Positions 1,986 to 30,884 of a stretch of 64,000 bases of DNA are shown piece by piece. A model generated the notes under the pieces. It did not search any database, was not told where the DNA came from, and was given only the letters and a program-made list of their open reading frames with translations. Position 1 is the first letter of the stretch; every line of letters begins with the position of its first letter. The stretch covers positions 1,395,868-1,459,867 of the forward strand of contig CAWGKE010000001.1 in the NCBI GenBank assembly GCA_963823075.1. Direction: 5' to 3'. Position numbers and translations under genes: made by a program. This DNA is from an uncultured Planctomycetaceae bacterium (lineage in GTDB: Bacteria; Planctomycetota; Planctomycetia; Gemmatales; Gemmataceae).

Positions 1986-2672
1986 ATGTTACCGCGCGTC
2001 CTCGAACCCGAGGTGATGGATTCCGCCGAGGAAGCCCGCGACTACGATGCGATGGACCATTCGACGGTCAACCGCGTCTTCGTCACGGACTTCCTCGCCG
2101 TCTGGGACGGGACCAACCCGATCCTCGACGTGGGCGCCGGAACCGCACAGATCCCGATCGAACTGTGCCGCCAAAGCTCCACGGCCATCGTCACCTGCGT
2201 CGATCTGGCGGAACACATGCTGGCGGTCGGCCGCGACAACGTGGACCGGGCCGGCCTGCACGACCGCATCCGCCTGGAGCGCTGCGACGCCAAGCGGCTG
2301 CCGCACACGACCGGCGCCTTCGGGGCCGTGATCTCCAACAGCATCGTGCATCACATCCCCGAGCCGGCCGAGGCGCTGGCGGAGATGGTGCGCGTCGCGG
2401 CGCCGGGCGGCGTCCTGTTCGTGCGCGACCTGCTGCGGCCCGACGACGAAACGACACTGCGCCGCCTCGTCGAGCAGTACGCCGGCGGCGCCAACGCCCA
2501 TCAGCAAAAAATGTTCGCCGACTCGCTGTACGCCGCCCTGTCGCTGGCGGAGGTCCGCGAACGCATCGCCGCGCTTGGATTCGACCCCGCCGAAGTCCGC
2601 CCGACCACCGATCGGCACTGGACCTGGAAAGCAGTGGCGAGTGGCGAGTGGCGAGTGGCGAGTGGTCGTTGA
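1986..2672 (+). CDS. Class I SAM-dependent methyltransferase
   Basis: ATG at 1986. Motif I LDVGAGTAQIP and post-motif AVISNSIVHH. The C-terminal residues WKAVASGEWRVASGEWRVASGR are encoded by the left arm of a tandem-heptamer hairpin. Confidence 0.8.
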   Translation: MLPRVLEPEVMDSAEEARDYDAMDHSTVNRVFVTDFLAVWDGTNPILDVGAGTAQIPIELCRQSSTAIVTCVDLAEHMLAVGRDNVDRAGLHDRIRLERCDAKRLPHTTGAFGAVISNSIVHHIPEPAEALAEMVRVAAPGGVLFVRDLLRPDDETTLRRLVEQYAGGANAHQQKMFADSLYAALSLAEVRERIAALGFDPAEVRPTTDRHWTWKAVASGEWRVASGR

Positions 2673-2745
2673 CACTATTCCAATTCGGAACAGAGGTGGG
2701 GCGGCCGGCGCCCTGTTTTCACTCGCCACTCGCCACTCGCCACTA
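2633..2745. repeat. Hairpin whose stems are tandem heptamers, (GTGGCGA)4 and (TCGCCAC)3, around a ~55-nt loop
   Basis: Left arm 2633-2665 is the exact reverse complement of right arm 2721-2745. It overlaps the methyltransferase stop and the mlaE-like start. Probable terminator or structured element. Confidence 0.85.
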
Positions 2746-3509
2746 TGCTTGAAACCCTCGGCCGTCTCTCCCACTTCGCCTGGCGCTCTCTGCTGGTGCT
2801 GCCGCACGCGCTGTTGCGGCCGCGCGAGCTGGCCGCTCAACTGTTCCACGTCCTGATGGGATCGCTGCCGCTGGCGCTCACCGCCGGGGCGGCCATCGGC
2901 GTCGTCGTGTGGCTGCACCTGCGCGGCGCCCTGGAAGCTGTCGCCGGGCCGGGGGCCGTCGTCTATCTGCCGCAGGCGCTCGCGCTGGCCGTCGTGCTGG
3001 AGCTGGCGCCGCTCGCCGCCGGACTCGTCGTGGCCGGACGCATGGGGGCCAGTCTCGGCGCCGGCCTCGGGGCCATGACCCTCACCGAACAAATCGACGC
3101 ACTGGAGGCGCAGGGCCTCTCCCCCATGCGCGAATTGACGGCCCCCCGCGTCCTCGCCTGCATGATCTCGCTGCCGCTGCTCACCGTGTTCATTTCCTTC
3201 ACCGCCCTCGCATCCGGCTGGCTGGCCGAGACGCTCGGCGGGACCCTCACCGGCCGGCAGTTCTTCAACGAGTCACTGCGCGTCCTCACGTTGCACGACG
3301 TCCTCCCGGCCGTGTTCAAGACGGTCGTGTTCGGCTGGCTGATCGGTGCGTCCGGCTGCTACTTCGGCATGAGCGCCCGCGGCGGCGCCGAGGGCGTCGG
3401 CAAGGCGGCCACCGCCGGCGTCGTGGCGTCGCTGTTCCTCGTGCTGGTTTCCGACGTGGCGCTCGTCAAGCTCATCCAGATCGTCACGGCCTGGGCGCCG
3501 CATCTGTGA
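2745..3509 (+). CDS. mlaE: MlaE-family ABC transporter permease
   Basis: 254-aa polytopic membrane protein with the MlaE/YrbE signature region (LTEQIDALEAQGLSPMRELTAPRVLA). Confidence 0.8.
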   Translation: MLETLGRLSHFAWRSLLVLPHALLRPRELAAQLFHVLMGSLPLALTAGAAIGVVVWLHLRGALEAVAGPGAVVYLPQALALAVVLELAPLAAGLVVAGRMGASLGAGLGAMTLTEQIDALEAQGLSPMRELTAPRVLACMISLPLLTVFISFTALASGWLAETLGGTLTGRQFFNESLRVLTLHDVLPAVFKTVVFGWLIGASGCYFGMSARGGAEGVGKAATAGVVASLFLVLVSDVALVKLIQIVTAWAPHL

Positions 3510-3819
3510 GACGGGCTTCTCCCTTCCTGCGAAATGGCGTGCGCATTTTTGGGCGGAGGAGCGGCGCCCGCGCGAGTGGCGCGGCGTCTGCCCGCCGGTG
3601 CTGCACGAAGTCAGCGACAAGATACTGCACTGGCGGGCTGACGCCGCGCCGCTCGCCGCTCGCACCGCCGAACGGCATGGATGTTGCCTAAAGGTTCTGC
3701 CGCTACCGGAGGCGGTTCCGGAATGCTTCCCGGACGCGCAAGGGTTTGCGATCCAACGGTTGGGCCGCGGCCCCCACCAGGGAAATCGACCTTCAGCCGC
3801 AAAAGAGGGAGTAGATCCA

Positions 3820-4272
3820 ATGGCGAACAATCCCGGTTCCGTTCACGACAAGAGCAAGGACTTCGCTTCCAGCGTCGGCCAAGCCGCGTCGGACGTCAAG
3901 AACAAGGCCCAAGACCTCGGCGCCGCCGCCATGCACCAGGCCAAGGACGCCGCGTCCAACCTGGCCGACAAGGCCAAGGGCGCTGCCAACTACGTCGGCC
4001 AGCGGGCGGAAGACGCCACCTCGGCCGCCGGCGGCGGGCTGAAATCGCTGGCCAGCCAGGTGCGCCAGAACGCCCCGCACGAAGGGATGCTCGGCTCGGC
4101 CGCCAGCGGCGTCGCCGGCGCCCTCGACCGCACGGGCGACTACCTGCGCGAGCAGGGCCTCAGCGGCATGGGCAGCGACTTCACGAACCTGATCCGGCGG
4201 AACCCGATCCCGGCCCTGCTGATCGGCGTCGCCGTCGGCTTCCTTCTCGCCCGGGTCACGTCGAGGAGCTGA
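3820..4272 (+). CDS. DUF883 (ElaB/YqjD-like) membrane-anchored stress protein
   Basis: ATG at 3820 with an upstream AGAGGGAG RBS. KDxA repeats and a C-terminal TM anchor (NPIPALLIGVAVGFLLARV). Confidence 0.7.
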   Translation: MANNPGSVHDKSKDFASSVGQAASDVKNKAQDLGAAAMHQAKDAASNLADKAKGAANYVGQRAEDATSAAGGGLKSLASQVRQNAPHEGMLGSAASGVAGALDRTGDYLREQGLSGMGSDFTNLIRRNPIPALLIGVAVGFLLARVTSRS

Positions 4273-5453: not shown

Positions 5454-5524
5454 GTTCAGCCGCGACCCGACAGGGGAGCGGGTCTCGATGACGCGCTTTC
5501 CTGTCGGGTCGCGGCTGAACTTTT
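5454..5524. terminator. Rho-independent, bidirectional terminator (21-bp perfect stem plus T-run)
   Basis: GTTCAGCCGCGACCCGACAGG ... CCTGTCGGGTCGCGGCTGAAC followed by TTTT. It lies between convergent genes. Confidence 0.8.
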
Positions 5525-7567
5525 CAAAACACTTCCGCCGCTCCATGCGCCTTGAGCAATAGCTGAAGTCGCGGATCCATTTCATCCGGTTCCGGGAACA
5601 GCTGCCGGAAGGCGTCGCCGTGGTCGGACAGGTCCACGCCGGCCGCCAGACAGCGCGGCAGCACCCAGGCGAACAGCACGGCGTCCAGCGCGTCCGGGGC
5701 GCCCGGCTCGGCCGGCCAGCCCGCCAACCGCCGGTCGGCCGCCAGCACGTTGCGGCGCCACAGCTCGTTCGGCGCCGGCTGCATCTGGTCCAGCAGGAAG
5801 CCCAGCGCGTCCTCGTCGGGGCCGTCGGGGTGCGGCCAGGGGCCGGCCGTCATCTGACCGGCCCGCGCCGGCCGGGCCTTCCAGCCGCGCTTCCACGCCA
5901 GGCAGTCCGTGTGCAGGATCGGCCCCAGGGCCGTCAGCACCGGGTCGGGCGGCGCGGCGCTGAATCCCTCGGACAGCACGCCCAGCACCATCAGCCCCGG
6001 CGCCGAATCCAGCCCGGCGGCGCGCTCAGCCAACAGGCGCACCAGATCGGCGCCGTAGGCGTCGATGCAGGAGCGGTTGGCGCCGTGCAGCAGCAGCGCC
6101 GCCGGCCCCTTCGCCGCGACCGATTCCAGAATCGGCCGAACCGCCGTCCCGTCCTTGAGGTCGCTCGGCACGTCCAGCTCGGACCAGCGCTCCCCCGACA
6201 GAGCCAGGGCGGCGGCCCGCGCCAGCACCGGCGCCAGCGACCCTTGAAAGAAAACCGCCTGGCCCAGCGACACGGCCGCCAGGGTCTCGCGCGCCACCGC
6301 CGACGCCGAACGCGGCTGGAGGCCGACGTTCTCCAACTGACTTTTCAGGTGCGCATAGGAGGCGATCCAGGCCGAGCAGCGGAACGGCCTCGCGCTCGTA
6401 GGTGAGGTGCGCCACGGCTGTCACAGCCGTGCCCGGCGCCGCGGCGGCGGCGCCGTCGGCCAGGAACGGCCGCAGCACGGCCACCTCGGCCAGAATCGCG
6501 TTGACCTCCTGTTGCGCCTGGCGGGCGCGGGCCACCACCGCCTCGGCCGTCGCCTCGGCCGTCTGCTCCTTCTTCGCCTCCTCGTCGGCCAGCCGCTGCC
6601 GCGCCGCCTCGATCTCCGCCTCGACGCCCTGCTTCTTCGCCCTCAATTCCTCCACCTCGTCGCCGAGCTGCGACTTCAGCTTTTCCAGCTCCTTGCGATG
6701 CTCCTCGCCGATCTGGTGCTTGTACTGCTCGATGGCCTCCTGCACCTTCGGGTCGGCGCGCAGCAGCGGCACGCACTCCTCCAGCCGCTTGCCGGTCTGC
6801 AGCGCCTCGTCGAGCAGCGTTTGCAGCCGGCGGCGGTGCAGCGGCGGGATGCGGGAGGCGTGGTCGATGGAGCCGAGCCGGCCGATCAGGTCGTCGTAGA
6901 GTTCCTGGCCGACGCCGATGCGCTGAAGGTTTTCGAGGACCTGTCGGGTGGAGGCGAGGTCGATGAACGAATCGGGTCGCGGCAGCGGCCAGACGAACCA
7001 GCGGATGGTCTGGCCCATGCTGACGAGGACGGGCTGGAGGGCGTGGCGGTTGGGCCAGGCGCCAAGCGGCTGGGCCAGCAGTTCGGGGTCGCAGCGGAAT
7101 CGGCCGTCGGCCTCGGCCGGTTCCAGGCGCACGGGGCCGGCCGTCACGCCGTCGGCGAACTCCAGCAGCAGGTCGCGGCCGTCCAGGCGATAAAACGACT
7201 CCAACCCTCGCTCCAGGAGGAATTGGCGGGCCTCGTCGGCGCGGTGGGAGGGGCAGTCAATGCGGAGCAGCTCGGCCGGCACGTCGGGGCGGAGGCGGAA
7301 GGCGCGGTACTTGGCGCCGCGGTTGCGCTCGCCGAAGCTGGGGTCTTCTTCCACGTCCCAGAAGCCGAGGTCGCGGAAGCGCACGGGGAGATGCGGGAAC
7401 AGGGAGCGCGGCACGTAGATGGAGCCTTGCGGCGGAAACATGCTGAAGTCGGCCTTGAGCAGCCGGCCCTCGTGGCCGGCCGCCATGACGTAGGCGAAGG
7501 TGTAATCCGTCGTGGCGATTTCCGCGCAGAAACCGAGGACAATGCGGGGGACCATGCGATACCTCAA
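5524..7567 (-). CDS. Hypothetical coiled-coil protein of about 680 aa, disrupted by a frameshift near 6340-6420
   Basis: Two overlapping minus-strand ORFs (6026..7567 and 5524..6336) both look protein-like right up to the junction. Beyond the junction the other frame is GC-rich garbage. Central coiled coil EEHRKELEKLKSQLGDEVEELRAKKQG. Confidence 0.55.
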
Positions 7568-15755: not shown

Positions 15756-16367
15756 TTGTCCATTCAGACTTTGGAACTCGCCGTCGTCAAGGTCGGCGGC
15801 AGCCTCTACGATCTGCCCGACCTCGGCCCGCGTCTGCAAGCCTGGCTGCCCCATGTCGGGCCAAACGTCTTGCTTGTTCCGGGCGGCGGCCCGACCGCCG
15901 ACGTGGTGCGCGATTTCGACCGCATCCACCGGCTCGGCGAGGAACGGGCGCACTGGCTGGCCCTCGGCGCCTTGCAGCTCAACGCCCACTTCCTGACGTG
16001 GCTGCTGCCGTCGGCGGCGGTCATCGACCATCCCGAACAGGCGGCCGGCGGCGTCGCCATCCTCAACGCCTTTTCGTTCCTCAGCCGCGAAAAGGCCGCC
16101 TGCCGCAAAGGGCGGCTGCCGCACTGCTGGGCCGTCACCAGCGACGCCATCGCCGCCCGCGCCGCCGTCGTCGCGGGGGCGGCGGAACTCATCCTGCTCA
16201 AGTCCGTCGCCATTCCCGAGGGCATGAGTTGGGAAGAGGCGGCCCGAAGCGGCTTCGTCGATGAGTGGTTCGCGCCGACGCTGCGCGAGGCCACGTCGTC
16301 GTTGCGGGTGCGGGCCGTCAACTTCCGCGAGTGGCAAAAGATACGCCCGTCGGAGCCGCGACCGTAA
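15756..16367 (+). CDS. Amino-acid kinase family protein (Asp/Glu/uridylate kinase fold), probably H4MPT-associated
   Basis: VVKVGGSL glycine-rich kinase motif. TTG start is uncertain. Ends ...SEPRP inside a palindrome. Confidence 0.55.
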   Translation: MSIQTLELAVVKVGGSLYDLPDLGPRLQAWLPHVGPNVLLVPGGGPTADVVRDFDRIHRLGEERAHWLALGALQLNAHFLTWLLPSAAVIDHPEQAAGGVAILNAFSFLSREKAACRKGRLPHCWAVTSDAIAARAAVVAGAAELILLKSVAIPEGMSWEEAARSGFVDEWFAPTLREATSSLRVRAVNFREWQKIRPSEPRP

Positions 16368-16415
16368 GGGAGCGGTTTTCGCTGACACCGCTCCCTTACG
16401 GTCGCGGCTCCGACG
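16348..16415. terminator. 29-bp perfect inverted repeat that holds the stop codons of both convergent genes
   Basis: CGTCGGAGCCGCGACCGTAAGGGAGCGGT / ACCGCTCCCTTACGGTCGCGGCTCCGACG. Because of it, both converging proteins end in the peptide SEPRP. Confidence 0.8.
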
Positions 16416-17136
16416 TGGCCTCGACCAGGCCGCGCACCTTCTCCGCATCCACGGCGGCGGTCCGCAGCAACCCCTGGCAGGCGGCGCCGCGCACCGCGAA
16501 CCAGTCGGGGTCCGTCGGCCTCAGCGTGCGGATCAGACTGCGGCTCAGCGATCCCGCCAGAGCGATCCGCACGCCAGCGTCGCGGCAGGCCCGGCACAGG
16601 CGGTCGATCTCGACGCGGCTCATCCAGTCCAGCAGCGTCAGGCCGTCCTTGCCCCAGGTGTCGAGCAGGAGGCCCCAGCCCGGCCGGCGGCTTACAAACG
16701 TACACACCTCGTCCGGCGTGGGCGCCCGCGCTCGCCGCCAGTCGGCGTAGGCGACGACGGCCACTTTGCAGAGGGGATTCGCCTTCCATACGGCCTCGGC
16801 CAGCGCCTCCAGCTGCGCCGGCCACGACGGCGATTCTTCCCCCGCGCTGCCGGCCAGGCCGCACTTGACGAAGGAGAGCGACCCGAGGCCGGCGGGCAGC
16901 GTCCTTACGGTTGCGGCACGGTCTGGAGACCGTGCCGCAACCTGGCGCAGCTCGCCCAGCGCGGCGCTGACCGGCGCCCGTCCGGCGACCGCCCGCACCA
17001 CGTCGGCGATCGCGGCGTCGTCGGCCCGGCCGAGCGCGCCGCGGGCCGGCTCCTTCACGTCGATCAGGGCCGCGCCGCCGGCCAGGGCCGCCTCCGCCTC
17101 CGCCGCTGAACGCACGCTCACTAACAGTGCCGTCAT
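16396..17136 (-). CDS. DUF556 / MfnB-like (5-formylfuran-3-yl)methyl phosphate synthase homolog (H4MPT biosynthesis)
   Basis: N-terminus MTALLVSVRSAAEAEAALAGGAALIDVKEP matches the MfnB/DUF556 aldolase-type TIM-barrel start. Confidence 0.65.
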   Translation of the reverse strand: MTALLVSVRSAAEAEAALAGGAALIDVKEPARGALGRADDAAIADVVRAVAGRAPVSAALGELRQVAARSPDRAATVRTLPAGLGSLSFVKCGLAGSAGEESPSWPAQLEALAEAVWKANPLCKVAVVAYADWRRARAPTPDEVCTFVSRRPGWGLLLDTWGKDGLTLLDWMSRVEIDRLCRACRDAGVRIALAGSLSRSLIRTLRPTDPDWFAVRGAACQGLLRTAAVDAEKVRGLVEATSEPRP

Positions 17137-17549: not shown

Positions 17550-17562
17550 CGCTCAGGAGTCG

Positions 17563-17670
17563 GCAGGGTCAGGGGTCGGGAGGTCAGAGGACCGCATTGC
17601 ATTGTATGCCGGCTGCGTTCGGGCGGCGCCGCTGACCCCTGACCCCTGACTCCTGACCCCTGACTCCTGA
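17563..17670. repeat. Imperfect hairpin with heptamer-repeat stems, (CAGGAGT/CAGGGGT)n versus (TGACCCC/TGACTCC)n
   Basis: Lies directly upstream of the kinase gene. It shares the same repeat unit as the hairpin at 21413-21512. Confidence 0.8.
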
Positions 17671-17805
17671 TTCCCATTTGCGGCCCGCCGCGCCGCAAGC
17701 TATGGTTTGGTGCATAATGTCGGGAGGCCGGCGCACTCCCCCGGTCCAACGTCCGTCCCGTCCCGAGGACGGACGACCCGCGCCCGCGCCCCGCGAGACG
17801 TACTC

Positions 17806-20800
17806 ATGGCGGTCCGGATCGAAAGCCAGGCCGAGCCAATCCCAGGCTATAAGCTCATCGAGCGCCTGGGCGGCGGCGGCTTTGGCGAAGTCTGGAAATG
17901 CGAGGCGCCCGGCGGGCTGCACAAAGCCATCAAGTTCGTCTTCGGCGATCTGTCCGCCGCGGTCTCCGACTCCGTCACCGACCACGGCGACGACGGCCAC
18001 CGCGCCAAGCAGGAACTCAAGGCCCTCAGCCGCGTCAAGACGGTCCGCCATCCCTTCATCCTCTCGCTCGAACGCTACGACATCATCGACGGCCAGCTCA
18101 TCATCGTCATGGAGCTGGCCGACCGCAACCTCTGGGACCGCTTCAAGGAGTGCCGCGCCCGCGGCCTGCCCGGCATCCCGCGCGACGAGCTGCTCGGCTA
18201 CATGGAAGAGGCGGCCGAGGCGCTGGACCTGATGAACAACACGTACCAGCTGCAGCACCTCGACATCAAACCGCAGAACCTCTTCCTCGTCTACCAGCAC
18301 GTCAAGGTGGCCGACTTCGGCCTGGTCAAGGACCTCGAAGGCGTCCAGGCGTCCGTCACCGGCGGCGTCACGCCGGTCTACGCCGCCCCCGAAACCTTCG
18401 ACGGCTGGGTCAGCCGCTTCAGCGATCAATATAGTCTGGCCATCGTCTATCAGGAGCTGCTCACCGGCCGCCGGCCGTTCAACGGCGCCAACGTCCGCCA
18501 GCTGATCGTGCAGCACCTCCAGGCCGCGCCCGACGTCACGCCGCTGCCGCCGGCCGACCAGCCGGCCATCGCCCGGCGCTGGCCAAGAACCCGGACGAGC
18601 GCCACCCGACCTGCCAGGAAATGGTCCAGCTGCTGCGCCGGGCCGGCCGGCCTTCCGACGATGCGCAAGGCCCCTCCGAGCGCTTGCGCGAACCGGCTCG
18701 CCCGGCCGCGCCACTTCCGCCGCTCGACCCGATCCAGACGCTCGAGCGCGACGTTGGGCCGCCCAGCACGTTCCAGGAGGCCGCCACCGCCAGCATCCGT
18801 CGCGGGCCGGCCGACTCCCACCCCGGCCTGACGCTCTCCATCCGCGCCCTCGAAGGGGCCGTCCTCCAGGAGTCCGTCGCCTCGATCCGCAAGGCCCCGA
18901 CGGAGGTGCGCGGCGACGGCGCCCTGTTCCCCGCGCTGATCGTCGGCGTCGGCGCCGTGGGCATGACCGTTTTGCAGCGGCTGCGCGAGAGCCTGCATCG
19001 CCGCTTCGGCTCCGTGTCCCAGGCGCCGCACCTCCGCCTGCTGCTGCTCGACACCGACCCCGAGGTGGTGCGCTCGGCGACGGCCGGCCGGCCGGGCGCC
19101 GCCCTGGCCGGCGGCGACGTGCTGCTGACGCCGCTCAACCGGCCCAGCTACTACCTCCGGCCGCGCGACGGCCGGCCCAAGCTCGACGGCTGGCTCAACC
19201 CGCGGATGCTCTACCGCATCCCGCGCTCGCAGGTGACGACCGGCGTGCGGGCCCTGGGCCGCCTCGCCTTCTGCGACAACTACCGCGCCATCGTCCGCCG
19301 CCTCCAGACGGAGTTGGACGCCTGCCTGGAACCGAACGCCCTGCCGGGCGCCGCCCGCCAGTCGGGCCTCGGCCTCCGCACCAATCGGCCGCGCGTCTAC
19401 GTCGTCGCCAACCTGGCGGGCGGCACCGGCGGCGGCGTCTTCCTCGACCTGGCCTACACGCTCCGCGCCATGCTCCGCCAGATGGGCTACGCCCAGCCCG
19501 ACGTGGTCGGCCTCTTGCTGCTGCCGCCCGTGGACCGCCACCGCACTCGCGTCCTGCCGCTCGGCAACGCCTGCGCCGCCCTCACCGAATTGATCCATTA
19601 TTCCTCGCCCAAATCCGTCTTCACGGCCCGCTACCACGAGCGCGAGGCGCCGGTGCAGGACCCCGACCCGCCGTTCAGCCGCTGCTTCTTGCTGCAGATG
19701 CCGGACGAGGCCGACGAGACGGCGACGCGCGAGCTGGTCGATTCGGCCGGTCAGTTCCTCCACCGCGACCTCTGCTCGCCCCTGGGCCAGGCGGCCGACC
19801 TGGGCCGGGCCGGCCTGTCGGGGCCGCCGTGGGACCAGCGCGGCATGTTCTACCAGACGTTCGGCCTGTATCACCTGGCCTGGCCGCGGCACGCGCTGCT
19901 GCGCGAGGCCGGCCGCCGCCTCTGCCAGCGTCTCTTGCAGCGCTGGATAAGCAAGGACAGCAAGCCGCTGCGCGAGGCGGTGCAGGTTTGGGTCCAGGAA
20001 CAGTGGGCGCACCACGAGATGGGCGCCGACGCGATGATCGGCCGGCTGCGCGACGCTTGCCAGGACTTCCTGCGCCAGGCCCCCGAGGACGCCTTCGCCG
20101 CGATCGTCGAGCCGCTGGCCCGCTATCATGCGGCGGCCGGACGGGCCGGATCGCGTCCGCGCCCGGACGCGCCCCTCCCTCCCAACCCTCCCCCCGCGGG
20201 TGGGGGAGGGCAGGGTGGAGGGGCCCCCGACGCGGCGGCGGTGCTGGCGGAGCTGGAGGAGATGTTCGGCAGCCCGCGCGAGGAGGGCATGGGCGAGAAC
20301 GCCGGCGCCCTGGTGCGCCGGCTGCGCGAGGCGTCCGAGGAGGCGGTCGCCGATTGGGGGCAAAAGCTCGCGGAAATATCCGTTCATCTGATCGAGGAGC
20401 CGGAGTACCGGCTGGCCGGCGCCGAGGAGGCGGTGCGTCAGGTGGTGGCGACGATCGAGCAGATCCTGCAACGGCACGAGCCGCTGGGCGCGAGCTGGCG
20501 GCGAAGGCCGCGGAGGGGCACGCCCGGTTGCAGGCGGCGCTCGCGCCGGCGAAGCCCGGCGCCCGGCGCCCGGTCCTGCCGCCCGCCGAGGTCGCGGAAC
20601 TGCTGCGCGCCTACCCGAAATGGCGTTTCCAGAGCCTGGTAATGCAGCAGGCGTCGGCCGCGTTTTTGAGCCTGCGCGGCCACCTGTCCGACGAGCTGCG
20701 GGAAATCAACTTCTGCCGCGTGCGCCTGGCCGAGCTGCAACGGCTGCTGGAGGCGCCGTCCGACGCGGCCGAGACGGAAGCCCGGGCCGGCCGGCTCGTG

Positions 20801-21409
20801 CTGCCGGCGGGGTGCAAGGACATGGCGCAGGCCGTGGACGGCTTCCTGGCCGGCGTGACGCCGGAGGCGCTCTTGGAGCTGGACGTGCGGACGCAGACCG
20901 TCATCCGCGGGCAGTTCGTCGCGCTGGTCCACGTCTGCCTGGCCAGCGCCAACCTGCTGAAGAACGTCGAGACGGCGATGGTGGAGACGGCCCAGGCGTT
21001 CGCCGGCGAGCTGTTGGGCGAGACCAACGCGGCGGAGCTGTTCCTGCAACAGCACCCCGACCAGGAGGAGGCCATGGACGAGGCGGCGTCCTTCTTCAAC
21101 GAGGCCCATCCCGAGCTGGCGCCCGCCAAGGCCGCCCCCGCGTCCGAGATCTGCGTCCTGGCCGCGCCGCCGGGGCCGGCCGGCGACCGCTTCCGCGAGC
21201 TGACGCGAACCGCCCTGCCCGACGTCGAGTTCGCGCCGGCCGCCAGCGAGGACGACATCCTGTTTTACCGCGAGGTTTCCCATCTGCCGCTGGCCGAGCT
21301 GGAACAGCTCGGCCCGGCCGGCCTCGACGCCTACCGCCAGATGAGCGCCGCCGAGGACTTCACGCCGCACACTCGCATCGACGTGGACTTCGGCGCCCCT
21401 TCCCGCTGA
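17806..21409 (+). CDS. Ser/Thr protein kinase fused to a large C-terminal region that includes a tubulin/FtsZ-like GTPase domain. At least two frameshifts, near 18575 and 20480
   Basis: Kinase motifs GGGGFGEVWK, AIK, HLDIKPQNLF and ADFGL. The APE/ALAKNPDERHPT end of the kinase continues in the next frame after a missing G in CCCGGG near 18575. Downstream motifs are FtsZ-like: LIVGVGAVGMTVLQRL (T1-like) and VVANLAGGTGGGVFLDLAY (matching the tubulin signature [SAG]GGTG[SA]G). There is a third frame switch near 20480. Confidence 0.65.
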
Positions 21410-21412
21410 ATT

Positions 21413-21512
21413 CAGGAGTCAGGAGTCAGGAGCGGCAGCCGTGGCGTCCAAGGCGTCCGACGGCAGCTGACCCTATACAATTCCCTACTGACTCCTGACT
21501 CCTGACTCCTGA
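21413..21512. repeat. Hairpin whose stems are tandem heptamers, (CAGGAGT)3 and (TGACTCC)3
   Basis: Left arm 21413-21441 and right arm 21489-21512. It sits between the kinase stop and the M16 peptidase start. Confidence 0.85.
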
Positions 21513-21529: not shown

Positions 21530-24289
21530 ATGTCCCGATTGCTCCGCTCGCGTCTCGTCTGGACGCTTCTCGTGCTGGCGCCCGCCGCCCTGCTGACGAT
21601 GGCCCGCGCCGACGCCCCGAAGGAGGCGCCCGCCGAGGACGCCGCCCTCAAGGCCGCCTCCGCCCTCTACGACGGCGTTCGCGTCGAGACCCTCGACAAC
21701 GGCCTCAAGGTCTATCTCAAGCCGGTGCCCAAGTCGCCCGTCGTCACCACCATGGTCGCCTACAAGGTCGGCTCGGCCGACGAGGACCTCGACCACACCG
21801 GCCTGTCGCACTACCTCGAACATCTCATGTTCAAGGGCACCGACAAGATCCTGCCCGGCGACATCGACCGCATCACCTTCCGCAACGGCGGCGCCAATAA
21901 CGCCTATACCGATACGGATTACACCATATTCCACTTCGACTTCCCCTACGACCGCTGGGAGGCGGCCCTGGAGATCGAGGCCGACCGGATGCGCAACCTG
22001 CGCATCGACGACAAACACGAGTTCCAGCAGGAGAAGGGCGCCGTCATCAACGAGCTGCAGCGCGACGAGGACGAGCCGTGGGACCTGGAGGAGAAAACGA
22101 TCCTGCCGGCCCTGTTCGGCGCGGACGGCCCGTACGGCCATCCGGTCATCGGCCTGAAACAGCAGGTCCGCGACGCCACCGCCGAGGTCATCAAGGCCCA
22201 CTACGACAAGTGGTACCACCCCAACAACGCCTCGCTCGTCGTCTGCGGCGGCTTCGACCCCGACATGGCGCTGGCGAAGATCAAAGAGCTGTTCGGCCCC
22301 ATCCCGAAGGCGGAATTGCCGGAGCGCAAAAGGCTTTCGAGGGAGCAGCCGAAGCGGCCCGAGCGGGTCGCGATGGACTCGAAGTTCGCCGTGCCGCGGA
22401 TGCTGATGACCTGGAACACGGTGGACAGCAAGAGCGACGACTACCCGGCCCTGACCGTGCTGGAGGCGCTGTTGAACGGTCGCACCAGCCGGCTCTACAA
22501 GAAGCTGATCGAGGGCGAACAGGTCGCCTCGTCCGTCTCCGCCAGCCACAACGCCGGCCGCTACCCCGGCTGGTTCGAGATCGACCTGGAGCTGTACGAC
22601 AAGAAGGACGGCGACCGCACGGAGAAGCTGGTGCTGGACGAGCTGAAGAAGCTGGCCGACCAGCCGGTTTCGGACGCCGAGCTGGCGCGGGTGCGGCGGC
22701 AGCTTGTGGCCGGCGCCGTGTTCGGCCGCGAGAGCGTCCACGCCCTGGCCGACAGCATCGCCAAGGGCGTCACCACCAACGACCTCGACTGGCTCAAGAC
22801 CGTGCTGCCGCGCATGTTGGCCGTCACGCCCGCCGACCTCCAGCGCGTCGTCAAGACCTATCTCGATCCGGAAAAGCGCGTGGTCTTGTGGTCGGTCCCC
22901 AAGGGTGAAGGGGCGAGCGGCCGGCGTGAGCCGGCTGATGGGGTCTATCAGCCGGCTCACGCCGGCCGCTCGTCGCGCACCGCCGCGGTCGGCGGCGACT
23001 TCCCGCTCCAGGACGTGAAGCGCGTCGAGCTGCCCAACGGCCTGACGCTGCTCCTCTACGAGGACCACCGCCTGCCGATCATCACCGCCCAGGCGGAGCT
23101 GCACCGCGTCAACGCTTATGAGACGGACGACAAGCTCGGCGTGTCGGCGCTGACCGGCCTTCTGTTGCAGGAGTCCTCGAAGAAGCACAGCGGCCCGGAA
23201 ATCGCCGACCTGATCGAGGGCGTCGGCGGCTCGCTGGAGCTGGGCGCCGGCGGCGGCACGGTGCGCGTGCTGGCGCCGGATCGCTCGCTGGGCCTGGGGC
23301 TGCTGTTCGAGTGCCTGACGCAGCCGGCCTTCGCCAAGGAGGACTTCATGCGCCAGCAGCAGATTCTGCTCTCGACGCTCAAGGACATGGAGACGCAGCC
23401 GGAGTCGATGGCCGAGCGCACCTTCCAGGCGATGGTCTACGGCAAGCACCCGCGCGGCCGGCCGGCGATGGGCACGGTCAAGACGGTGGAGGCGCTGACG
23501 CCGGCCGACTGCGCCGCCTTCCATGAGAAGGTGTTCACGCCGTCCAACGTGACGCTGGCGATCGTCGGCGACTTCGACGCCAAGGAGGCGACGGAGGAGA
23601 TCGCAAAGCTGACGGCCGACTGGAAGAAGACGGACCTGGAAACGCCGCAATATCCGAAGGTGGAGATGCCCAAGGAGTTCACGCAGAAGATCATCTCCAT
23701 GCCGGAGTCGGCCCAGCTGCATTTCTACATCGGCCACGTCGGCGTCCGGCGCGACAACCCGGACTATTACAAGCTGCTGGTGATGGACTACGTTTTGGGC
23801 GTCGGCCCCGGCTTCACGGATCGGCTGTCGGCCCGGCTGCGCGACCGCGAGGGCCTGGCCTACACGGTGCGCGGCACGATCACGGGGTCGGCGGACCTGG
23901 AGCCGGGCGCGTTCACCGGCTACATCGGCACGGACAGCGACAATTTCGACCGCGTAAAGAAGGAGTTCCTGGAGGAGCTGAACCGCATCCGCGACACGGC
24001 GCCCAAGCCGCAGGAGGTGGAGGACGCGAAGACGTATCTGGTCGGCAGCCAGAGCCTGCGTTTTTCGACCTCGGCGGAGGTGGCCGGCCAGATGCTGTAC
24101 GTGGACCGCTACCACCTCGGCGCCGACTACCTGAGCGACTATCGCAAGGCGGTGATGGCGGTGACGCCGGAGGACGTGCAGGCCGTGGCGAAGAAGTACC
24201 TGGACCCGGACCACATGGTGATCGTGGCGGCCGGCGCCGTGGACGCGACGGGCAAGCCGACGAACAAGCTGCCGGCGCCGAAGCCGTGA
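21530..24289 (+). CDS. M16-family zinc metallopeptidase (pitrilysin/insulinase-like) with two tandem M16 units
   Basis: Signal peptide. Inverted zinc motif HYLEHLMFKGT (HxxEH). 919 aa, with a second inactive-type M16 repeat. Confidence 0.85.
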   Translation: MSRLLRSRLVWTLLVLAPAALLTMARADAPKEAPAEDAALKAASALYDGVRVETLDNGLKVYLKPVPKSPVVTTMVAYKVGSADEDLDHTGLSHYLEHLMFKGTDKILPGDIDRITFRNGGANNAYTDTDYTIFHFDFPYDRWEAALEIEADRMRNLRIDDKHEFQQEKGAVINELQRDEDEPWDLEEKTILPALFGADGPYGHPVIGLKQQVRDATAEVIKAHYDKWYHPNNASLVVCGGFDPDMALAKIKELFGPIPKAELPERKRLSREQPKRPERVAMDSKFAVPRMLMTWNTVDSKSDDYPALTVLEALLNGRTSRLYKKLIEGEQVASSVSASHNAGRYPGWFEIDLELYDKKDGDRTEKLVLDELKKLADQPVSDAELARVRRQLVAGAVFGRESVHALADSIAKGVTTNDLDWLKTVLPRMLAVTPADLQRVVKTYLDPEKRVVLWSVPKGEGASGRREPADGVYQPAHAGRSSRTAAVGGDFPLQDVKRVELPNGLTLLLYEDHRLPIITAQAELHRVNAYETDDKLGVSALTGLLLQESSKKHSGPEIADLIEGVGGSLELGAGGGTVRVLAPDRSLGLGLLFECLTQPAFAKEDFMRQQQILLSTLKDMETQPESMAERTFQAMVYGKHPRGRPAMGTVKTVEALTPADCAAFHEKVFTPSNVTLAIVGDFDAKEATEEIAKLTADWKKTDLETPQYPKVEMPKEFTQKIISMPESAQLHFYIGHVGVRRDNPDYYKLLVMDYVLGVGPGFTDRLSARLRDREGLAYTVRGTITGSADLEPGAFTGYIGTDSDNFDRVKKEFLEELNRIRDTAPKPQEVEDAKTYLVGSQSLRFSTSAEVAGQMLYVDRYHLGADYLSDYRKAVMAVTPEDVQAVAKKYLDPDHMVIVAAGAVDATGKPTNKLPAPKP

Positions 24290-24309
24290 CCGCGACCGCC
24301 CACTCCGTT

Positions 24310-24367
24310 TAGCCGCTCTTCGCAGAAGAGCGCGTCCGCGACGCGCTCTTCTGCGAAGAGCGGCTAA
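24310..24367. terminator. 25-bp perfect palindrome terminator
   Basis: TAGCCGCTCTTCGCAGAAGAGCGCG / CGCGCTCTTCTGCGAAGAGCGGCTA, just after the peptidase stop. Confidence 0.75.
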
Positions 24368-24447
24368 CCGAGTCGGAGCAAAACCGACGTTGCGGCCGCC
24401 CTCGAAAGACGGTATCTCCCCACCGGAATCCGCTCGGGGGAGAAACG

Positions 24448-25451
24448 ATGCGTCATTCGTGGCTGCTTTTCGCGGCGGTGCTGGTCCCAAGTCCGACGTG
24501 GTGCGCGGTCGGCCGGGCCGCGCTGGAGGGCGATCCGCCGGCGTTCGACGCCGGGACCGTCCACGCCGGCGCACCGCTGTCGCACCGCTTCGTCCTGTCA
24601 AATCGCGGATCGGAAATCGTAGAAATCATCGAAACCCGACCGAGTTGCGGCTGCGCGACGGCGACGCCGGATCGGCGGCGATTCGCGCCGGGCGAAACGG
24701 GATCGCTGCTGCTGGCGGTCAACACGCTGACGCGCCGGACGGCCCCTCGTCGTGGGGCGTGACGCTGCGCTGCCGCTGCGGCGACCGCGTCGAGGAGACG
24801 ACGCTGACGCTGACGGCGCACGTGCGGGCCGACCTGTCGCTGGAGCCGTCGGCCTTGGTCGTCGAGACGGCCGGGGCGGTGGACCGTACCATCACGCTGA
24901 CCGACCGGCGGCAAGCGGCGATGAGCGTCAAGGTGGAGACGACGTGCCCGCAGGTGCGGGCGTCGGTGGACGCGCCGACCCCCCCTCCCAACCCTCCCCC
25001 CGCGGGTGGGGGAGGGCGGGGGTGGACATATGCGATCCATCTGGAGGCGCCGGCCGACCTGCCCGAGGGCCGGTACGACGAGACGCTGCATCTCTACACA
25101 TCCGACCCGGAATATCCTGATTTGAAGCTGCCGTTCACAATCGTGAAGCACGGCCGCCAGCGCGTGAGCGCGACGCCGGCGGCGGTGGAACTGACGGCCG
25201 CCTCGCCGTCGCGGCTGGTGCTGCTGCGGGGCGGCGAGGGCGACGGCGACGAGGTGGAGATCGGCGGCGTGGACGCGGACGCGGCGGTGCGGTGCGAGTG
25301 GACGCCGGGCCCGCGGCCGACGGCGGCGGTGCGGCTGCGTCTCGACGCCGCGAAGCTGCCGGCCGACGGAGTGAAAACGGTCGTGCATGTCCATCTCATC
25401 AAGCCGGCGGAGCAGACGGTGGACGTGCCGGTGACGTGGGGGCCGCGGTGA
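24448..25451 (+). CDS. DUF1573-domain secreted protein (frameshift near 24735)
   Basis: Signal peptide, then the DUF1573 pattern FDAGTV..G....RFVLSNRGSEIVEIIETRPSCGCA. The ORF continues in the +1 frame (24390 frame) after LAVNTLT. It contains the 34-nt GC palindrome at 24984-25017. Confidence 0.6.
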
Positions 25452-27058: not shown

Positions 27059-27226
27059 GAGCAGCGCTTCCGTGGCCAGGCGGGGAGGCGGGCGTCCTTC
27101 GCATTGGCGCCATTATAGGGACGGCGGCAGGCTCCGGGGATCGTCTGGAAACCAGAGAAGCGCCGGCGAGGGATTCGGACGGAATCCCTTGCCGGCGCTT
27201 GGGGCGGGTCGTCGAACGATGGTCAT

Positions 27227-27941
27227 TCCGGCGGGGCGGGGATGGGGGAGCCGATCGGCTCGGCCCGCGTGAAATCCACGTCGGTTCGCTCGTTGGAGTG
27301 GACGATCACAGTGCGCGTCTGATCGACCACCTTGCCGTTCGCCTTCCAGCGGGCGCGGATCTCGTACTGATAGTTGCGGCCGACGGGCAGGGTCGGCGTG
27401 ACGAACTCGCGCTGCTCGCCCTTCTGCTGGGTCGCGTCGCCGTTGAACCAGACCTCGGCGTCGGCGGGGACGACGACGCCGACCGCGGCCGTGCCGTCGG
27501 GCGGAGGGGGCTGTCCGGGTTGTTGCGGCGCCGGGCCCCGTCGTCCGGGCTGCCGCTGGAGTAGAGGGCCGCCGACGGCGCGGGGTAGGCGTAGGCCGGC
27601 GCGACGTAGGCGGGGCTGTAGTAGGCGCTGAGGCCGGGGTAGACGCCAAGGCTGCCGAAGTAGCCCGGAGCGTAGCCGCCGTAGTAGCGGCCGTAATACC
27701 CCGAGCGGTAGCCGCCGCCGTAGTAGCCCGAATGATAGCCGCTGTAATACCCGGAGTGGTAGCCGCCGGCGTAGCCGCCGTGGTAGCCGCCGCCGGCGTA
27801 GCCGCCGTGGTAGCCGCCGCCGGCGCCGCCGTGGTTGCCGCCTCCCTGGGCGGGCGCGGCGAGGGCCGACCCAACGGGCAAGCCGAGCAGGGCCGCCGTC
27901 AGCGTTGCGACCATCGGGGCGAAAAAGCGTGATCCGGACAT
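27227..27941 (-). CDS. Secreted Gly/Tyr-rich protein with a C-terminal TIGR03000 (planctomycete) domain (frameshift near 27550)
   Basis: Signal peptide, then GGYHGGYAGGYHSGYY repeats. The third minus-strand frame encodes AEVWFNGDATQQKGEQREFVTPTLPVGRNYQYEIRARWKANGKVVDQTRTVIVHSNERTDVDF, a TIGR03000-like sequence, and ends at the TGA at 27227. Confidence 0.6.
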
Positions 27942-28503: not shown

Positions 28504-28656
28504 CCTACAATTTCCGGCTGAAATTCGCCAGCAGCAGCGCCCGGCCGCGAAGGTGATCGATCGGAATCCCCAGGGCCAACTCTCGGGCCTGGTCGCACTG
28601 CCCCTGCTGCACGAGGTCCGCAACCCGACGGTACGTTTGGACGGCGATCTGGGTCA
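28504..28656 (-). CDS. Small ORF of 50 aa with a strong RBS
   Basis: GGAGACAGTTGCC precedes the ATG. Product MTQIAVQTYRRVADLVQQGQCDQARELALGIPIDHLRGRALLLANFSRKL. It is not in the ORF track because it is under 60 aa. Confidence 0.3.
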
Positions 28657-28870
28657 TGGCAACTGTCTCCCCGGTGAAAGTGCGCTGGTCCCCAAGGGAG
28701 TTTGCCCCGCGAATGTCCGCCGCGCCGGCCGCGCTTCATGGAAACCAGCGACGATCGGGGGCCGCTCGTCGTCGCCGGCCGCGTCTCGCTTGAAATGCCT
28801 ACAGCAACCCTCTCTTTCCTCGCCGGATCACTTTGCCGGCCCGCCCCATCTTCCGCCGGCCACGCCGTCT

Positions 28871-28937
28871 GGTTAGCCGCGACGCGCAGCGGAGCGCTTC
28901 GCCCCCCAAGCGCTCCGCTGGCGCGTCGCGGCTAACC
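28871..28937. terminator. Near-perfect 30-bp palindrome
   Basis: GGTTAGCCGCGACGCGCAGCGGAGCGCTTC with its reverse complement (one extra G), located downstream of the 28949 gene's stop. Confidence 0.7.
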
Positions 28938-28948
28938 GGCGTCCCCAA

Positions 28949-30001
28949 TCACTTCTTGAGCGTCCCCCGCCACTCGCCGTCGAGTTCCTGGAGCGTCTTG
29001 CCCGTGAGATCCTTGAAGAGGTCGTCGGAGTAATCCCCCTTCCGCATGTGGACGTTGAGCTTGCGGACCAACTCCTTGTCATACTTTTCGGACACGTAAT
29101 TCAGGAACGTCGCCGTGACGCGGTAGCTGCCGTCGTAGTGGGCCTTGTCGGGATCGACCGGCCCCGCCTTGCCCGGCTCGTACTTGAAGAAGCGCTCGTA
29201 GTCGGCGACGCCCTCGACCAGCCAGCCCGGGTTGCGGACGCCGCGGAGGCCCTGGATCGTGTGGACGGTTTCGTGGACCATCGCCCCGAAGTCGTCGGGG
29301 TGCGATTTGAAATACTTCACGGACCCCGTAATGTGGTCGCCGCCGGTCGCCGCAACGCCCCGGTAGCGGTTCTTGAGGGTCATGGTGACGACGCGGGACG
29401 GTTTCCAGCCGTCGCTCTTGAGGTCGTCGCAGAGCAGCGGATATTCGCGCTCGCAGATGCGGGCGGCCTTGTCCGCCCATTCCTTCATCTCCGGCGCGTC
29501 GGACACGTCCACCACGAACTCGACGGGGTACTGGAAGACCGTCACGGCCGGGTCCGAATCGACCGCGATCTCGTCGATCGCCAGCGGATGTTTGAGGTCT
29601 TCCGTGGGCCGAATGCGGATCGCCTGGATCATGCGGCCGTCGAACTTGGCGGTGGCGATGCCGTCCGCGAATATCCCGGCGTCCTCGAAGGATTTGCCGT
29701 CGGCGGAGACCTGGAGCGTCCCTGCCTCCAGCTCGTCGCCGCCCTTCGGTCGGCCGGTGGAGACGCAGACCGACTTCACGGCGACCGGCCTGTCGAAGAC
29801 GAGGCTGAAGTGGTCGGCGGCGGTCGGGTTTTTTTCCGACGCGAAATAGGTGTCAAGATCGCCGTCGAAGGCGAGCTGGCGAATCTGTTCGCCCGCCGTG
29901 GTCAGCGTGGTTTCGACGGTCGCGGCGACCGGCTCCGCGGCGCGCGACGCCGCGGCCCACAGCAGCGGCGCCGCGAGGATGAGGGGGGTCCAACGTCGCA
30001 T
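28949..30001 (-). CDS. Secreted protein with an N-terminal F5/8-type C (discoidin) domain and a C-terminal BSP-family putative zinc metallopeptidase
   Basis: Signal peptide. The discoidin region is inferred. The C-terminal module has an HExxH (HETVHTIQ) motif, as in the basic-secretory-protein / plant-and-bacterial peptidase family. Confidence 0.55.
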   Translation of the reverse strand: MRRWTPLILAAPLLWAAASRAAEPVAATVETTLTTAGEQIRQLAFDGDLDTYFASEKNPTAADHFSLVFDRPVAVKSVCVSTGRPKGGDELEAGTLQVSADGKSFEDAGIFADGIATAKFDGRMIQAIRIRPTEDLKHPLAIDEIAVDSDPAVTVFQYPVEFVVDVSDAPEMKEWADKAARICEREYPLLCDDLKSDGWKPSRVVTMTLKNRYRGVAATGGDHITGSVKYFKSHPDDFGAMVHETVHTIQGLRGVRNPGWLVEGVADYERFFKYEPGKAGPVDPDKAHYDGSYRVTATFLNYVSEKYDKELVRKLNVHMRKGDYSDDLFKDLTGKTLQELDGEWRGTLKK

Positions 30002-30019
30002 TCCGATCCTCCCAGAGAA

Positions 30020-30769
30020 TTAGACGGGGATTTGTGCCGAATGCGCCGCCTCGGCCGTGCTGATGACGCAGCGCAGCTCCCATTCGTCCTCGCGCGCCGA
30101 CCAGGCGGCCTCCTGCGAACGCGGCTCGGGAATCCGCCCTTCGGGGTCATAGATCAGGACGACGAGGGTGCGGCAATCGGGCCGGCCGCGGTAGTAGGCC
30201 GCGTCTTCCTTCAGCTGCTCCGTCAGCCGATCCCCGACGACGGGCGGCCGCACGACCTTGACCGCGACCGCGATCTGCTCCGGGGCGAGGCGGAAGTCGG
30301 TTCGCACGCCGGCGGCGTAGCGCGGCGTCCGTCCCTCCGGCCGCACGTCGTCGAAATGCAGCGGCAGAAGCGCCCTCAGAAGGTCTTCCAAATCTCTTTC
30401 ATCTTCCACGCGGAATGGCGGCCGATCGCCCTGCCGCCAGCGCAGCTGGCGGATCGCGCGCGGCAGGCGGCGGAGCAGCCGTTCCAGCGGGGCCGTCGGG
30501 TCCGCGGCGGGCGGCGCTTGCCGCGTCCACGGCAGGGCCGCCCCGCAGACGGAGCAGCAGCGCGCCGGCCGGCGCGTGCCGACCGGCGCCAGTCCCGGTA
30601 CAGGCGCGGCGCCGGGCAGTCCCGTGCCGCAGGTGGGGCAGCGGTCGATGGTCGCCGCCCCGCAGCGGTCGCAGGCGGTGCGGCGCCGCTCGGGATGGGT
30701 GCAGGCCAGGTCGGTGATGACGTGGCCGTTCAGGCAGACCTGCATCACGTCGCTGTCGGGGTGGGCCAT
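30020..30769 (-). CDS. Zinc-ribbon protein with a C-terminal PD-(D/E)xK-like region, hypothetical
   Basis: ATG at 30769 (MAHPDSDV). Cysteine clusters CLNGH..CDRCG..CPTCG..CCSVCG. The C-terminus FDDV...TDFRLAPEQIAVAVKV resembles an REase-fold core. The annotated N-terminal extension is a translation of the hairpin repeat. Confidence 0.45.
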   Translation of the reverse strand: MAHPDSDVMQVCLNGHVITDLACTHPERRRTACDRCGAATIDRCPTCGTGLPGAAPVPGLAPVGTRRPARCCSVCGAALPWTRQAPPAADPTAPLERLLRRLPRAIRQLRWRQGDRPPFRVEDERDLEDLLRALLPLHFDDVRPEGRTPRYAAGVRTDFRLAPEQIAVAVKVVRPPVVGDRLTEQLKEDAAYYRGRPDCRTLVVLIYDPEGRIPEPRSQEAAWSAREDEWELRCVISTAEAAHSAQIPV

Positions 30770-30785
30770 CGCTATCTCCCGTTGA

Positions 30786-30884
30786 GAGACAAGGAGAAGA
30801 GGAGACAAGGAGACAAGGAGCGGCTGAAACGGTTGTCGTTTCATCCCCTCTCCTTGTCTCCTCTTCTCCTTGTCTCCTTGTCTG
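30786..30884. repeat. Hairpin whose stems are tandem octamers, (GAGACAAG) and (CTTGTCTC), with 35-bp arms
   Basis: GAGACAAGGAGAAGAGGAGACAAGGAGACAAGGAG .. loop .. CTCCTTGTCTCCTCTTCTCCTTGTCTCCTTGTCT. Confidence 0.85.

Follow-up and report, generated by a model that had tools for sequence, protein, structure and literature searches.

Our results show that four intergenic hairpins in a 64,000-nt stretch of DNA from an uncultured Planctomycetaceae bacterium (family Gemmataceae; contig CAWGKE010000001.1, positions 1,395,868 to 1,459,867; below, the window) form one architectural class: hairpins whose two arms are themselves tandem repeats of a 7–8-nt unit. This class had been proposed in a sequence-only reading of the same DNA, and the four elements (E1 to E4) do exist at the places it named, each as two inverted runs of such a unit. 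At orthologous sites in relatives with 83–96% protein identity, the hairpin is swapped for a hairpin made of another unit, for a palindrome resembling repetitive extragenic palindromic (REP) sequences, or for nothing at all. Judging from these comparisons, we hold with moderate confidence that the elements are paired mirror-image microsatellites, which would grow in place, be tolerated at gene boundaries and form REP-like stem-loops when transcribed from the upstream gene. The part of this explanation that concerns origin is better supported than the part that concerns action, and we infer that the elements act on RNA.

The array coordinates come from Tandem Repeats Finder together with an inverted-repeat search. 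By Tandem Repeats Finder the period is 7 in E1 to E3 (3.0–5.6 copies) and 8 in E4. In E1, which lies between a methyltransferase gene and a gene for an MlaE permease, the 5' arm (2633–2665, (AGTGGCG)x4.7) falls within the last 13 codons of the methyltransferase open reading frame (ORF; 1509–2672) and codes for the final ~13 residues of the protein, as had been claimed. The 54-nt spacer (2666–2719) supplies the stop codon (2670–2672) and contains a small GC hairpin followed by TGTTTT, with no TAnnAT hexamer. The 3' arm (2720–2744, (CACTCGC)x3.6) was thought to overlap the next start codon; it only adjoins it, ending at 2744 directly before the MlaE ATG at 2745.

E2 separates two divergent genes, an ASCH-domain gene on the minus strand and a kinase/tubulin-like gene on the plus strand. 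Its left arm (17553–17591), a TCAGGRG array that is degenerate and contains indels, lies 3 nt from the start codon of the ASCH gene (17549, minus strand); it begins 10 nt earlier than the start at 17563 first assigned to it. Read on the minus strand, this arm is the pyrimidine-rich leader of the ASCH gene; the 3' arm is (CTGACYC)x5.6 (17632–17674). E3 lies between the tubulin-like gene and a gene for an M16 peptidase. The 5' arm (21412–21432, (TCAGGAG)x3) starts 2 nt past the tubulin-like gene's stop codon (21407–21409), the spacer is 55 nt long, and the 3' arm (21488–21512, (CTGACTC)x3.6) is followed by a Shine–Dalgarno sequence, GGAGAGGA, and by the M16 ATG at 21530, 17 nt away. The M16 peptidase mRNA is predicted to have this 3' arm as its 5' leader. 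As had been noted, E2 and E3 stand on either side of one gene (kinase plus tubulin-like, about 17900–21409). E4 is flanked by two minus-strand genes, an SPFH/Band7 gene and a DUF2321/DpnII-like gene. One arm (30786–30820), made of GAGACAAG/GAGAAGAG 8-mer units, is 16 nt from the DUF2321/DpnII-like start codon (30769, minus strand), and the other (30849–30883), made of TCTCCTTG/TCTCCTCT units, is 3 nt from the SPFH/Band7 stop codon (30887–30889, minus strand). Its 28-nt loop contains an extra 7-bp stem.

The arms were said to be perfect reverse complements of each other. This is true for E1 (25 of 25 positions in the inverted-repeat search) and for E4 (28 of 28, with a variant unit mirrored between the arms), but not for E2, where the left arm has indels. 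Spacers measure 28–62 nt in the window and 21–71 nt across all elements sampled. When folded as RNA, the four elements reach −67.9 to −81.1 kcal/mol (z = −4.8 to −8.7 against shuffles), and no shuffled sequence folded as well as any of them. One hundred dinucleotide-preserving shuffles of the window contained on average 0.81 arrays of period 6–9, of which none were paired, compared to seven paired arrays (making up the four elements) in the real window. Pairing beyond the shuffles together with the strong folding confirms the original observation.

The period of seven is not peculiar to the window, which has a G+C content of 63–72% in a genome described as 68% G+C. Seven is the modal period in high-GC Planctomycetota loci (24 of 45 short arrays in 540 kb), and no heptamer array was found in 314 kb of low-GC Planctomycetota loci. 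Rfam has no family for the elements at gathering thresholds. At relaxed thresholds only sub-threshold models of eukaryotic microRNA precursors matched, which is generic hairpin noise.

The nearest relatives of the window's proteins come from Gemmataceae metagenome-assembled genomes. We retrieved the orthologous regions of relatives (L-numbered loci) via three flanking proteins; a metagenome scan with the M16 protein, which gave 16 loci, yielded no further close relative bearing an array. The hairpins could have been assembly artefacts, as was considered when they were first described. This is not the case, because equivalent elements occupy the same intergenic sites in independent assemblies (L001, L004, L011/L034, L017, L051 and L052). 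Both the unit sequence and the copy number, for which slipped-strand variation had been suspected, differ among orthologous sites of relatives.

The E4 site, from Band7 to DUF2321, shows how far these differences go, with five states among the window and relatives of 85–96% identity. The window carries the 8-mer hairpin, L052 (96%) a hairpin with arms of two copies of the 9-mer GGTCCTATG, L056 (92%) a one-unit form of the L052 hairpin, CCTATGGGAC/GTCCCATAGG, and L050 (95%) a REP-like palindrome. There is no element in L051 (91%) and L054 (85%), where the two genes are 11–21 nt apart. The motif that builds the L052 and L056 hairpins also occurs elsewhere in the window, as a 9-mer array (GGTCCTATG x2.9, 57203–57228) in a 63-nt gap between two co-directional genes.

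At the E3 site, L001 (94% amino acid identity) has (TCAGTAG)x4 and (CTACTGA)x3.7, and the TCAGTAG unit recurs in L004 (78%), where a palindromic element of ~200 nt interrupts the loop. In L011 (84%) the arms are degenerate, L017 (89%) retains the proximal array alone, L002 (78%) has a single different array (ACGGACT/AAGGACT) adjoining the ATG, and L003, L005 and L055 have no array. The E2 site of L001 and L017 has arms built from GAATGAT/GAACGAT units, with a spacer unlike that of the window. At the E1 site, between methyltransferase and MlaE, L053 (83%) has a REP-like palindrome (family B, described below), which the methyltransferase ORF enters and inside which it stops. The site downstream of the M16 gene behaves alike: a REP-like palindrome (family A) is present in the window and in five relatives, whereas L001 has a (CAGTGGT)n heptamer hairpin.

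Further heptamer hairpins are found in L051 (two) and in L032 (Isosphaeraceae), L013 and L049 (one each). There is no single consensus unit; the unit varies by site, from AGTGGCG, TCAGGRG and GAGACAAG in the window to TCAGTAG, GAATGAT, CAGTGGT, GAGGAGT, AATGCGG and CAGATGA in relatives. The sole recurring unit is CAGGAGT. No two of the heptamer hairpins sampled have a common loop sequence.

What stays constant is the fit between genes and the polarity. Arms lie 0–3 nt from stop codons and 0–17 nt from start codons. In all nine heptamer hairpins listed systematically the G-rich array is the 5' arm (positive G–C skew), and by eye the same is true for a hairpin in L017 and for two more in L001. 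This order is found on both strands, with G-rich arrays after stops and C-rich arrays before starts whatever the orientation of the genes. Plain palindromes have a weaker G-first bias (62 versus 25), and these counts are not independent because the palindromes fall into only a few families. The simplest account of the polarity would be a filter acting on the transcript. Purine-rich arrays in a 5' leader would mimic Shine–Dalgarno sequences or form G-quadruplexes, and a free C-rich stretch before a hairpin would also be unfavourable. One could also think of telomere-like G-rich addition at the 3' ends of breaks. Such addition predicts the polarity, but we rejected it as a main reading in view of the site-specific units and the native promoter-like loops of E2 and E3. 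A function in providing stop codons in three frames, as repeats of a heptamer with TGA or TAG would do, was rejected as a general explanation, since several units contain no stop (AGTGGCG, CACTCGC, CTCCTTGT and TCAGGAG).

How do the arms arise and remain complementary? Between the window's E3 and its counterparts in L001 and L004, the unit changed from TCAGGAG/CTCCTGA to TCAGTAG/CTACTGA in nearly every repeat of both arms. Variant units in E4 (28 of 28 positions complementary), in L013 (30 of 30) and at the E2 site of L017 have their mirror images at the symmetric positions of the other arm. Copy number differs between arms and between relatives. In the sequences compared here the two arms evolve in concert. 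The one-unit hairpin of L056 and the two-unit hairpin of L052 indicate that arms can grow in place from a simple palindrome. The E1 unit, GGCGAGT, is the outer heptamer of the family B palindromes. One of these (3572–3656, ~900 nt from E1) corresponds to the E1 unit at its outer end, GCGAGTGGCG, and shows the beginnings of a heptamer duplication at its right end (CGCTCGC x2.4, 3647–3663).

We propose the following sequence of events. Slipped-strand events would amplify a unit of 7 nt (in rare cases 8 or 9) and so extend a local sequence or short palindrome at a gene boundary. The arms would be held as exact inverted copies either by quasi-palindrome template switching across the folded hairpin or by selection for pairing. 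Arrays could then expand until constrained sequence stops them, at one end a stop codon or C-terminal tail and at the other a start codon or ribosome-binding site. Only one orientation would persist, with the G/purine-rich arm after the stop and the C/pyrimidine-rich arm before the start. RNA derived from upstream would fold into a stem-loop of −68 to −81 kcal/mol, which, like REP stem-loops, would be an obstacle to read-through and to 3' exonucleases and would hide the next gene's leader. For E2 and E3, the promoter of the gene downstream would lie in the loop, so that this gene's own mRNA leader would consist of the unstructured pyrimidine-rich arm alone.

The last step is based on promoter-like boxes. 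TACAAT, a −10-like hexamer, is found in the E2 loop (17601–17606, minus strand), 57 nt upstream of the ASCH start codon, and in the E3 loop (21476–21481, plus strand), 54 nt upstream of the M16 ATG. Across the window, intergenic TAnnAT hexamers facing a gene typically lie 46–59 nt before the start codon. The octamer TATACAAT, 6 nt before the 3' arm of E3, is identical in L011 and L017, although the loop sequence around it has diverged; in L004 and L002 the place of the E3 box is taken by TATTAT. In L055, which has no arms, TACAATG...TCCTCT precedes the ASCH gene, a weak correspondence to the E2 box in an automatic alignment. There is no −35 consensus at the loop boxes, and a sigma-70 consensus scan reported none of the elements. 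ATACAAT is present in both the E2 and the E3 loop, and both elements have CTGAC-type arms. E2 may therefore be an inverted paralogue of E3, but the common 7-mer is within chance for two loops and the E2 box appears to match the L055 ASCH promoter instead. Taken together, the positions of the boxes suggest that transcription of the M16 and ASCH genes begins in the loop, which would leave the pyrimidine-rich arm alone as the mRNA leader. If so, these elements would represent a compact natural insulator design. As a separate observation, examples of TAnnAT in the window are found at 1289, 7615, 27117, 34639, 42038 and 58900, and the constant spacing is a possible handle on Gemmataceae promoter architecture.

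Do the hairpins terminate transcription? The sequence-only reading considered them unlike ordinary terminators, and our results agree: arms are 21–33 nt long, loops 21–71 nt, and a sense-strand U-tract is missing. No T-run follows the 3' arm of E1 or E3 on the sense strand, and E4 has one on the antisense strand only. Terminator consensus scans of the window reported none of the elements, and canonical terminators in general are near the shuffle expectation (19 versus 12.8±3.9 and 14 versus 12.1±3.1). A simple terminator role is unlikely for all elements, because E2 lies between divergent genes, the E2 and E3 loops contain promoter-like boxes, a related hairpin lies inside an ORF, and comparable pairs in Xanthomonas lie between groES and groEL and between atp genes (Rehm et al. 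2015, PMC4692102).

The hairpin inside an ORF is that of L013 (4582–4706), which lies in frame in a hypervariable linker of the M16 peptidase and is translated. Relatives without elements, this hairpin and the groES–groEL and atp pairs of Xanthomonas show that any function is dispensable and efficient termination unlikely. To judge from the relatives compared, the elements are dispensable and turn over quickly.

Several points weigh against our explanation. First, the sample of heptamer hairpins consists of about 13 elements in about 0.5 Mb rather than a genome-wide census, and within the source genome the search covered the 64-kb window. Second, the pattern of change suggests template switching between the arms, but selection for pairing predicts the same pattern. 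Third, the L013 hairpin and the Xanthomonas pairs (groES–groEL, atp and purL) suggest that transcription usually passes through, and efficient termination is hard to reconcile with loops of 21–71 nt and the missing U-tract. Fourth, the loops of E1 and E4 contain no −10-like box, and hence a promoter in the loop covers only two of the four elements. Finally, L051 and L054 have no element at the E4 site, so that no function can be required there.

It is possible, although somewhat doubtful, that the elements are neutral by-products. They would have the same origin in slippage and template switching, without any effect on expression that matters, and position and polarity would simply reflect where they are harmless. 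Fast turnover and presence or absence at orthologous sites are in line with this view, and so are elements that invade a C-terminal coding tail or lie in frame in a protein linker. Density is also lineage specific: there are no heptamer hairpins in L053–L055 (~60 kb) and none in the low-GC loci. In Xanthomonas, testing found no function. However, five or six lineages, with amino acid identities as low as 78%, have kept a heptamer array in the M16 leader despite the change of unit, and complementarity stays perfect although the unit changed. Furthermore, stems this stable are physically unlikely to leave RNA unaffected.

Our preferred explanation, growth in place at gene boundaries, can be taken one step further, to a point where we consider it improbable but worth stating. 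There could be a general bacterial process in which the hairpin templates itself: a unit of 7 nt would be amplified and homogenised in the two arms simultaneously, turning REP-like palindromes into heptamer-armed hairpins. If this were true, then heptamer excess, inverted pairing and G-rich-first polarity would all be explained together, and the process would hold across Planctomycetota, Xanthomonas (Gammaproteobacteria) and Cyanobacteria. Insulated promoter modules, whose loop contains the promoter and whose leader is rich in pyrimidines, would be a further product.

It is unlikely that the hairpins are mobile REPIN-like elements or MITEs (miniature inverted-repeat transposable elements), inserted by a transposase, with the heptamer arrays as terminal inverted repeats and possibly with a promoter on board. 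Their overall dimensions are like those of REPINs, CAGGAGT-type arms occur at three unrelated sites (E2, E3 and L051 6994–7081), and in L001/L017 all of E2, spacer as well as arms, is unlike that of the window. REP-like palindromes also re-use the sites, and the L001 and L004 hairpins enclose other palindromic elements. Nevertheless, elements with the same unit have no loop sequence in common and reading the flanks revealed no target-site duplication, and therefore a copy-and-paste mobile element is unlikely. The short and long hairpins of L056 and L052 point to growth in place instead, and the E2 loop promoter appears to match, weakly, the native ASCH promoter of the armless L055.

Hairpins of this kind may themselves receive other elements. 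L001 contains a 48-nt direct duplication of loop plus arm (5831–5878 and 6107–6154) around a ~228-nt palindromic insertion within a heptamer hairpin. Similar nested palindromic insertions are found in L001 (12866–12990) and L004 (9725–9930). This suggests that heptamer hairpins are targets for other palindromic elements.

At least as hard to believe is that the elements are tuning or contingency switches, in which slippage alters leader length or hairpin strength, or in which the loop with its promoter flips between the arms (an inverton). The arrays of E2 and E3 do lie between a −10-like box and a start codon, their copy number differs between arms and relatives, and a promoter-like loop is flanked by inverted repeats. 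Yet the flanking genes of the four elements are of ordinary housekeeping types (MlaE, M16 peptidase, ASCH and SPFH), not surface or contingency genes. The window, L011 and L017 all have the loop in one orientation, no adjacent gene encodes a recombinase, and known invertible promoter segments are longer than the 28–62 bp spacers found here. Least probable by far are sequence-specific binding arrays (iteron-like regulator sites) or G-quadruplex elements: tandem heptamers are binding sites elsewhere, e.g., for SARP regulators or for ToxR at ctx, and the GGGGTCA units of E2 and L051 could in principle form G-quadruplexes as proposed for Xanthomonas and Nostoc, but units that differ at almost every site could not be read by one protein, most of them (AGTGGCG, CAGTAGT, GAATGAT and GAGACAAG) lack G-tracts, and the unit changes between close relatives while the architecture is constant, so that unit diversity rules out either as a general explanation.

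The sequence-only reading had set the plain long palindromes of the window apart as a comparison. They are present at 5454, 16348, 24306 and 28869, but they are more than a contrast, as they belong to REP-like families that swap with heptamer hairpins. The window contains at least four such families, all of which recur in related Gemmataceae loci. Family A, GTT(T/C)AGCCGCGACC..GGGGAGCGCG, is found at 5454–5520 and, downstream of the M16 gene, at 24306–24370, with a variant at 28869–28939. Family B is GGCGAGCGGC(G)CGGCGT(G/C)AGCC..., family C is CGTCGGAGCCGCGACCGTAAGGGAGCGG (16346–16417), and family D lies at 254–322. Another REP-like palindrome is located at 47259–47349. A family B palindrome at 22910–22976 lies in frame in the hypervariable M16 linker that joins the two halves of the protein; the same linker contains a family B palindrome in L001 (11390–11456) and another palindrome in L003. 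Palindromic DNA is therefore translated as part of a protein.

A palindrome of opposite polarity to the heptamer hairpins, C-rich first (CCCTCCCAACCCTCCCCCCGC/GGGTGGGGGAGGGCRGGG), has copies at 20165–20223 and 24975–25030, both inside long ORFs. Larger MITE-like palindromic units of 127–128 nt with arms CTAGGATGGCAAACTTAACTTGAGA... form tandem doublets at 41235–41489 and 43107–43365, and these flank a tRNA-Ser gene (42080–42168) on both sides. An imperfect long repeat with a 12/27/51-nt period (GTAGCCGCC...) occupies 27672–27842 within an ORF (27113–27874, minus strand) that probably encodes a Gly/Tyr-rich repetitive protein. An S-adenosylmethionine riboswitch (RF00162, 85 bits) lies at 58630–58742 on the minus strand, upstream of a gene ending at 58328. 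The gene between E2 and E3 matches a single 1145-amino acid protein of L002 but occupies three reading frames, with shifts near 18600 and 20489, due to either assembly indels or a pseudogene. The methyltransferase of L053 is frameshifted in like manner, and hence indel errors are present in these assemblies.

How do the elements compare to known systems? They are distinct from CRISPR arrays, as had been recognised: each consists of two inverted arrays of contiguous units, with no direct repeats of 23–50 nt separated by unique spacers. They are also unlike MITEs, in that the flanks read directly show no target-site duplication and the loops are not common to the elements. With Rho-independent terminators they share a GC-rich stem-loop downstream of stop codons, but terminators have short stems, loops of 3–8 nt and a U-tract, and one heptamer element lies between divergent genes and one within an ORF.

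REPs and REPINs are closer. Like the heptamer hairpins, they are long intergenic hairpins at gene boundaries that occupy the same sites in relatives, and a REPIN consists of two inverted arms of ~25 nt and a spacer. However, REPs come in many near-identical copies with non-tandem arms, while the heptamer hairpins are individually different, with unrelated loops. Many near-identical dispersed copies were not found within the 64 kb, and there was no RAYT (Y1 transposase) domain among the flanking genes scanned.

Two other systems are built from heptamers. TAACTGA repeats lie upstream of start codons in Beggiatoaceae and some cyanobacteria and differ between strains by indels in steps of 7 nt (MacGregor 2015, PMC4679880). 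These arrays end a few nucleotides from the start, often without a Shine–Dalgarno sequence (as in E1 and E2), and may overlap the end of the upstream ORF. The proximal arms of our elements lie similarly close to starts, but their units are neither TAACTGA nor uniform and a partner array is present. TAACTGA, in contrast, is one unit, almost always in direct repeats (one inverted case in 170), for which regulator binding was proposed; here, unit diversity excludes this. The short tandemly repeated repetitive (STRR) heptamers of cyanobacteria are likewise 7-bp tandem intergenic units able to form hairpins, and those between hupS and hupL have been proposed to act in transcript stability, translational coupling or termination. 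They differ in having few genome-wide units, mostly single arrays (with few inverted pairs in Nostoc) and low-GC hosts.

The closest match is found in Xanthomonas, where each genome contains 183–186 arrays of the GGGAATC heptamer, and in 70–75 cases two arrays converge (Rehm et al. 2015, PMC4692102). In X. campestris and X. axonopodis the sites of the pairs are conserved, their length and sequence vary between related genomes, and no function was found (PMC4692102). The first part of S2 Table A lists seven pairs with arms of ~28 nt (four units) and spacers of 21–67 nt, and in all seven the G-rich array is the 5' arm (PMC4692102). These pairs lie a few nucleotides from ORFs or overlap them, with examples between groES and groEL, atpA and atpG, and atpD and atpC, and one inside purL (PMC4692102). 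The Gemmataceae elements likewise consist of a tandem 7-nt array with about four units per arm (three to five here), a nearby convergent partner with the G-rich array as 5' arm, and an intergenic position against ORF ends. They too lie mostly between co-directional genes and rarely between divergent ones, with an occasional intragenic pair (purL there, the M16 linker of L013 here). They differ in that Xanthomonas has one genome-wide consensus (GGGANTN) and its authors focused on G-quadruplexes, whereas the units here are site-specific and mostly unable to form them. Here the arms are also often perfectly complementary, elements are exchanged with REP-like palindromes, and the phylum is Planctomycetota.

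Our literature search found no report of such repeats in Gemmataceae. The kind itself is already known, as the architecture matches the inverted heptamer pairs of Xanthomonas. New here are the site-specific units, the swaps at orthologous sites, the change of unit in both arms, the mirrored variants, the in-frame hairpin in a linker and the conserved −10-like box in the loops of two window elements. The excess of heptamers in some bacterial genomes has been attributed to polymerase slippage in the earlier literature. Gemmataceae add a third, distant phylum with the same architecture and polarity, and snapshots from close relatives make the amplification of arms and their kept complementarity experimentally approachable.

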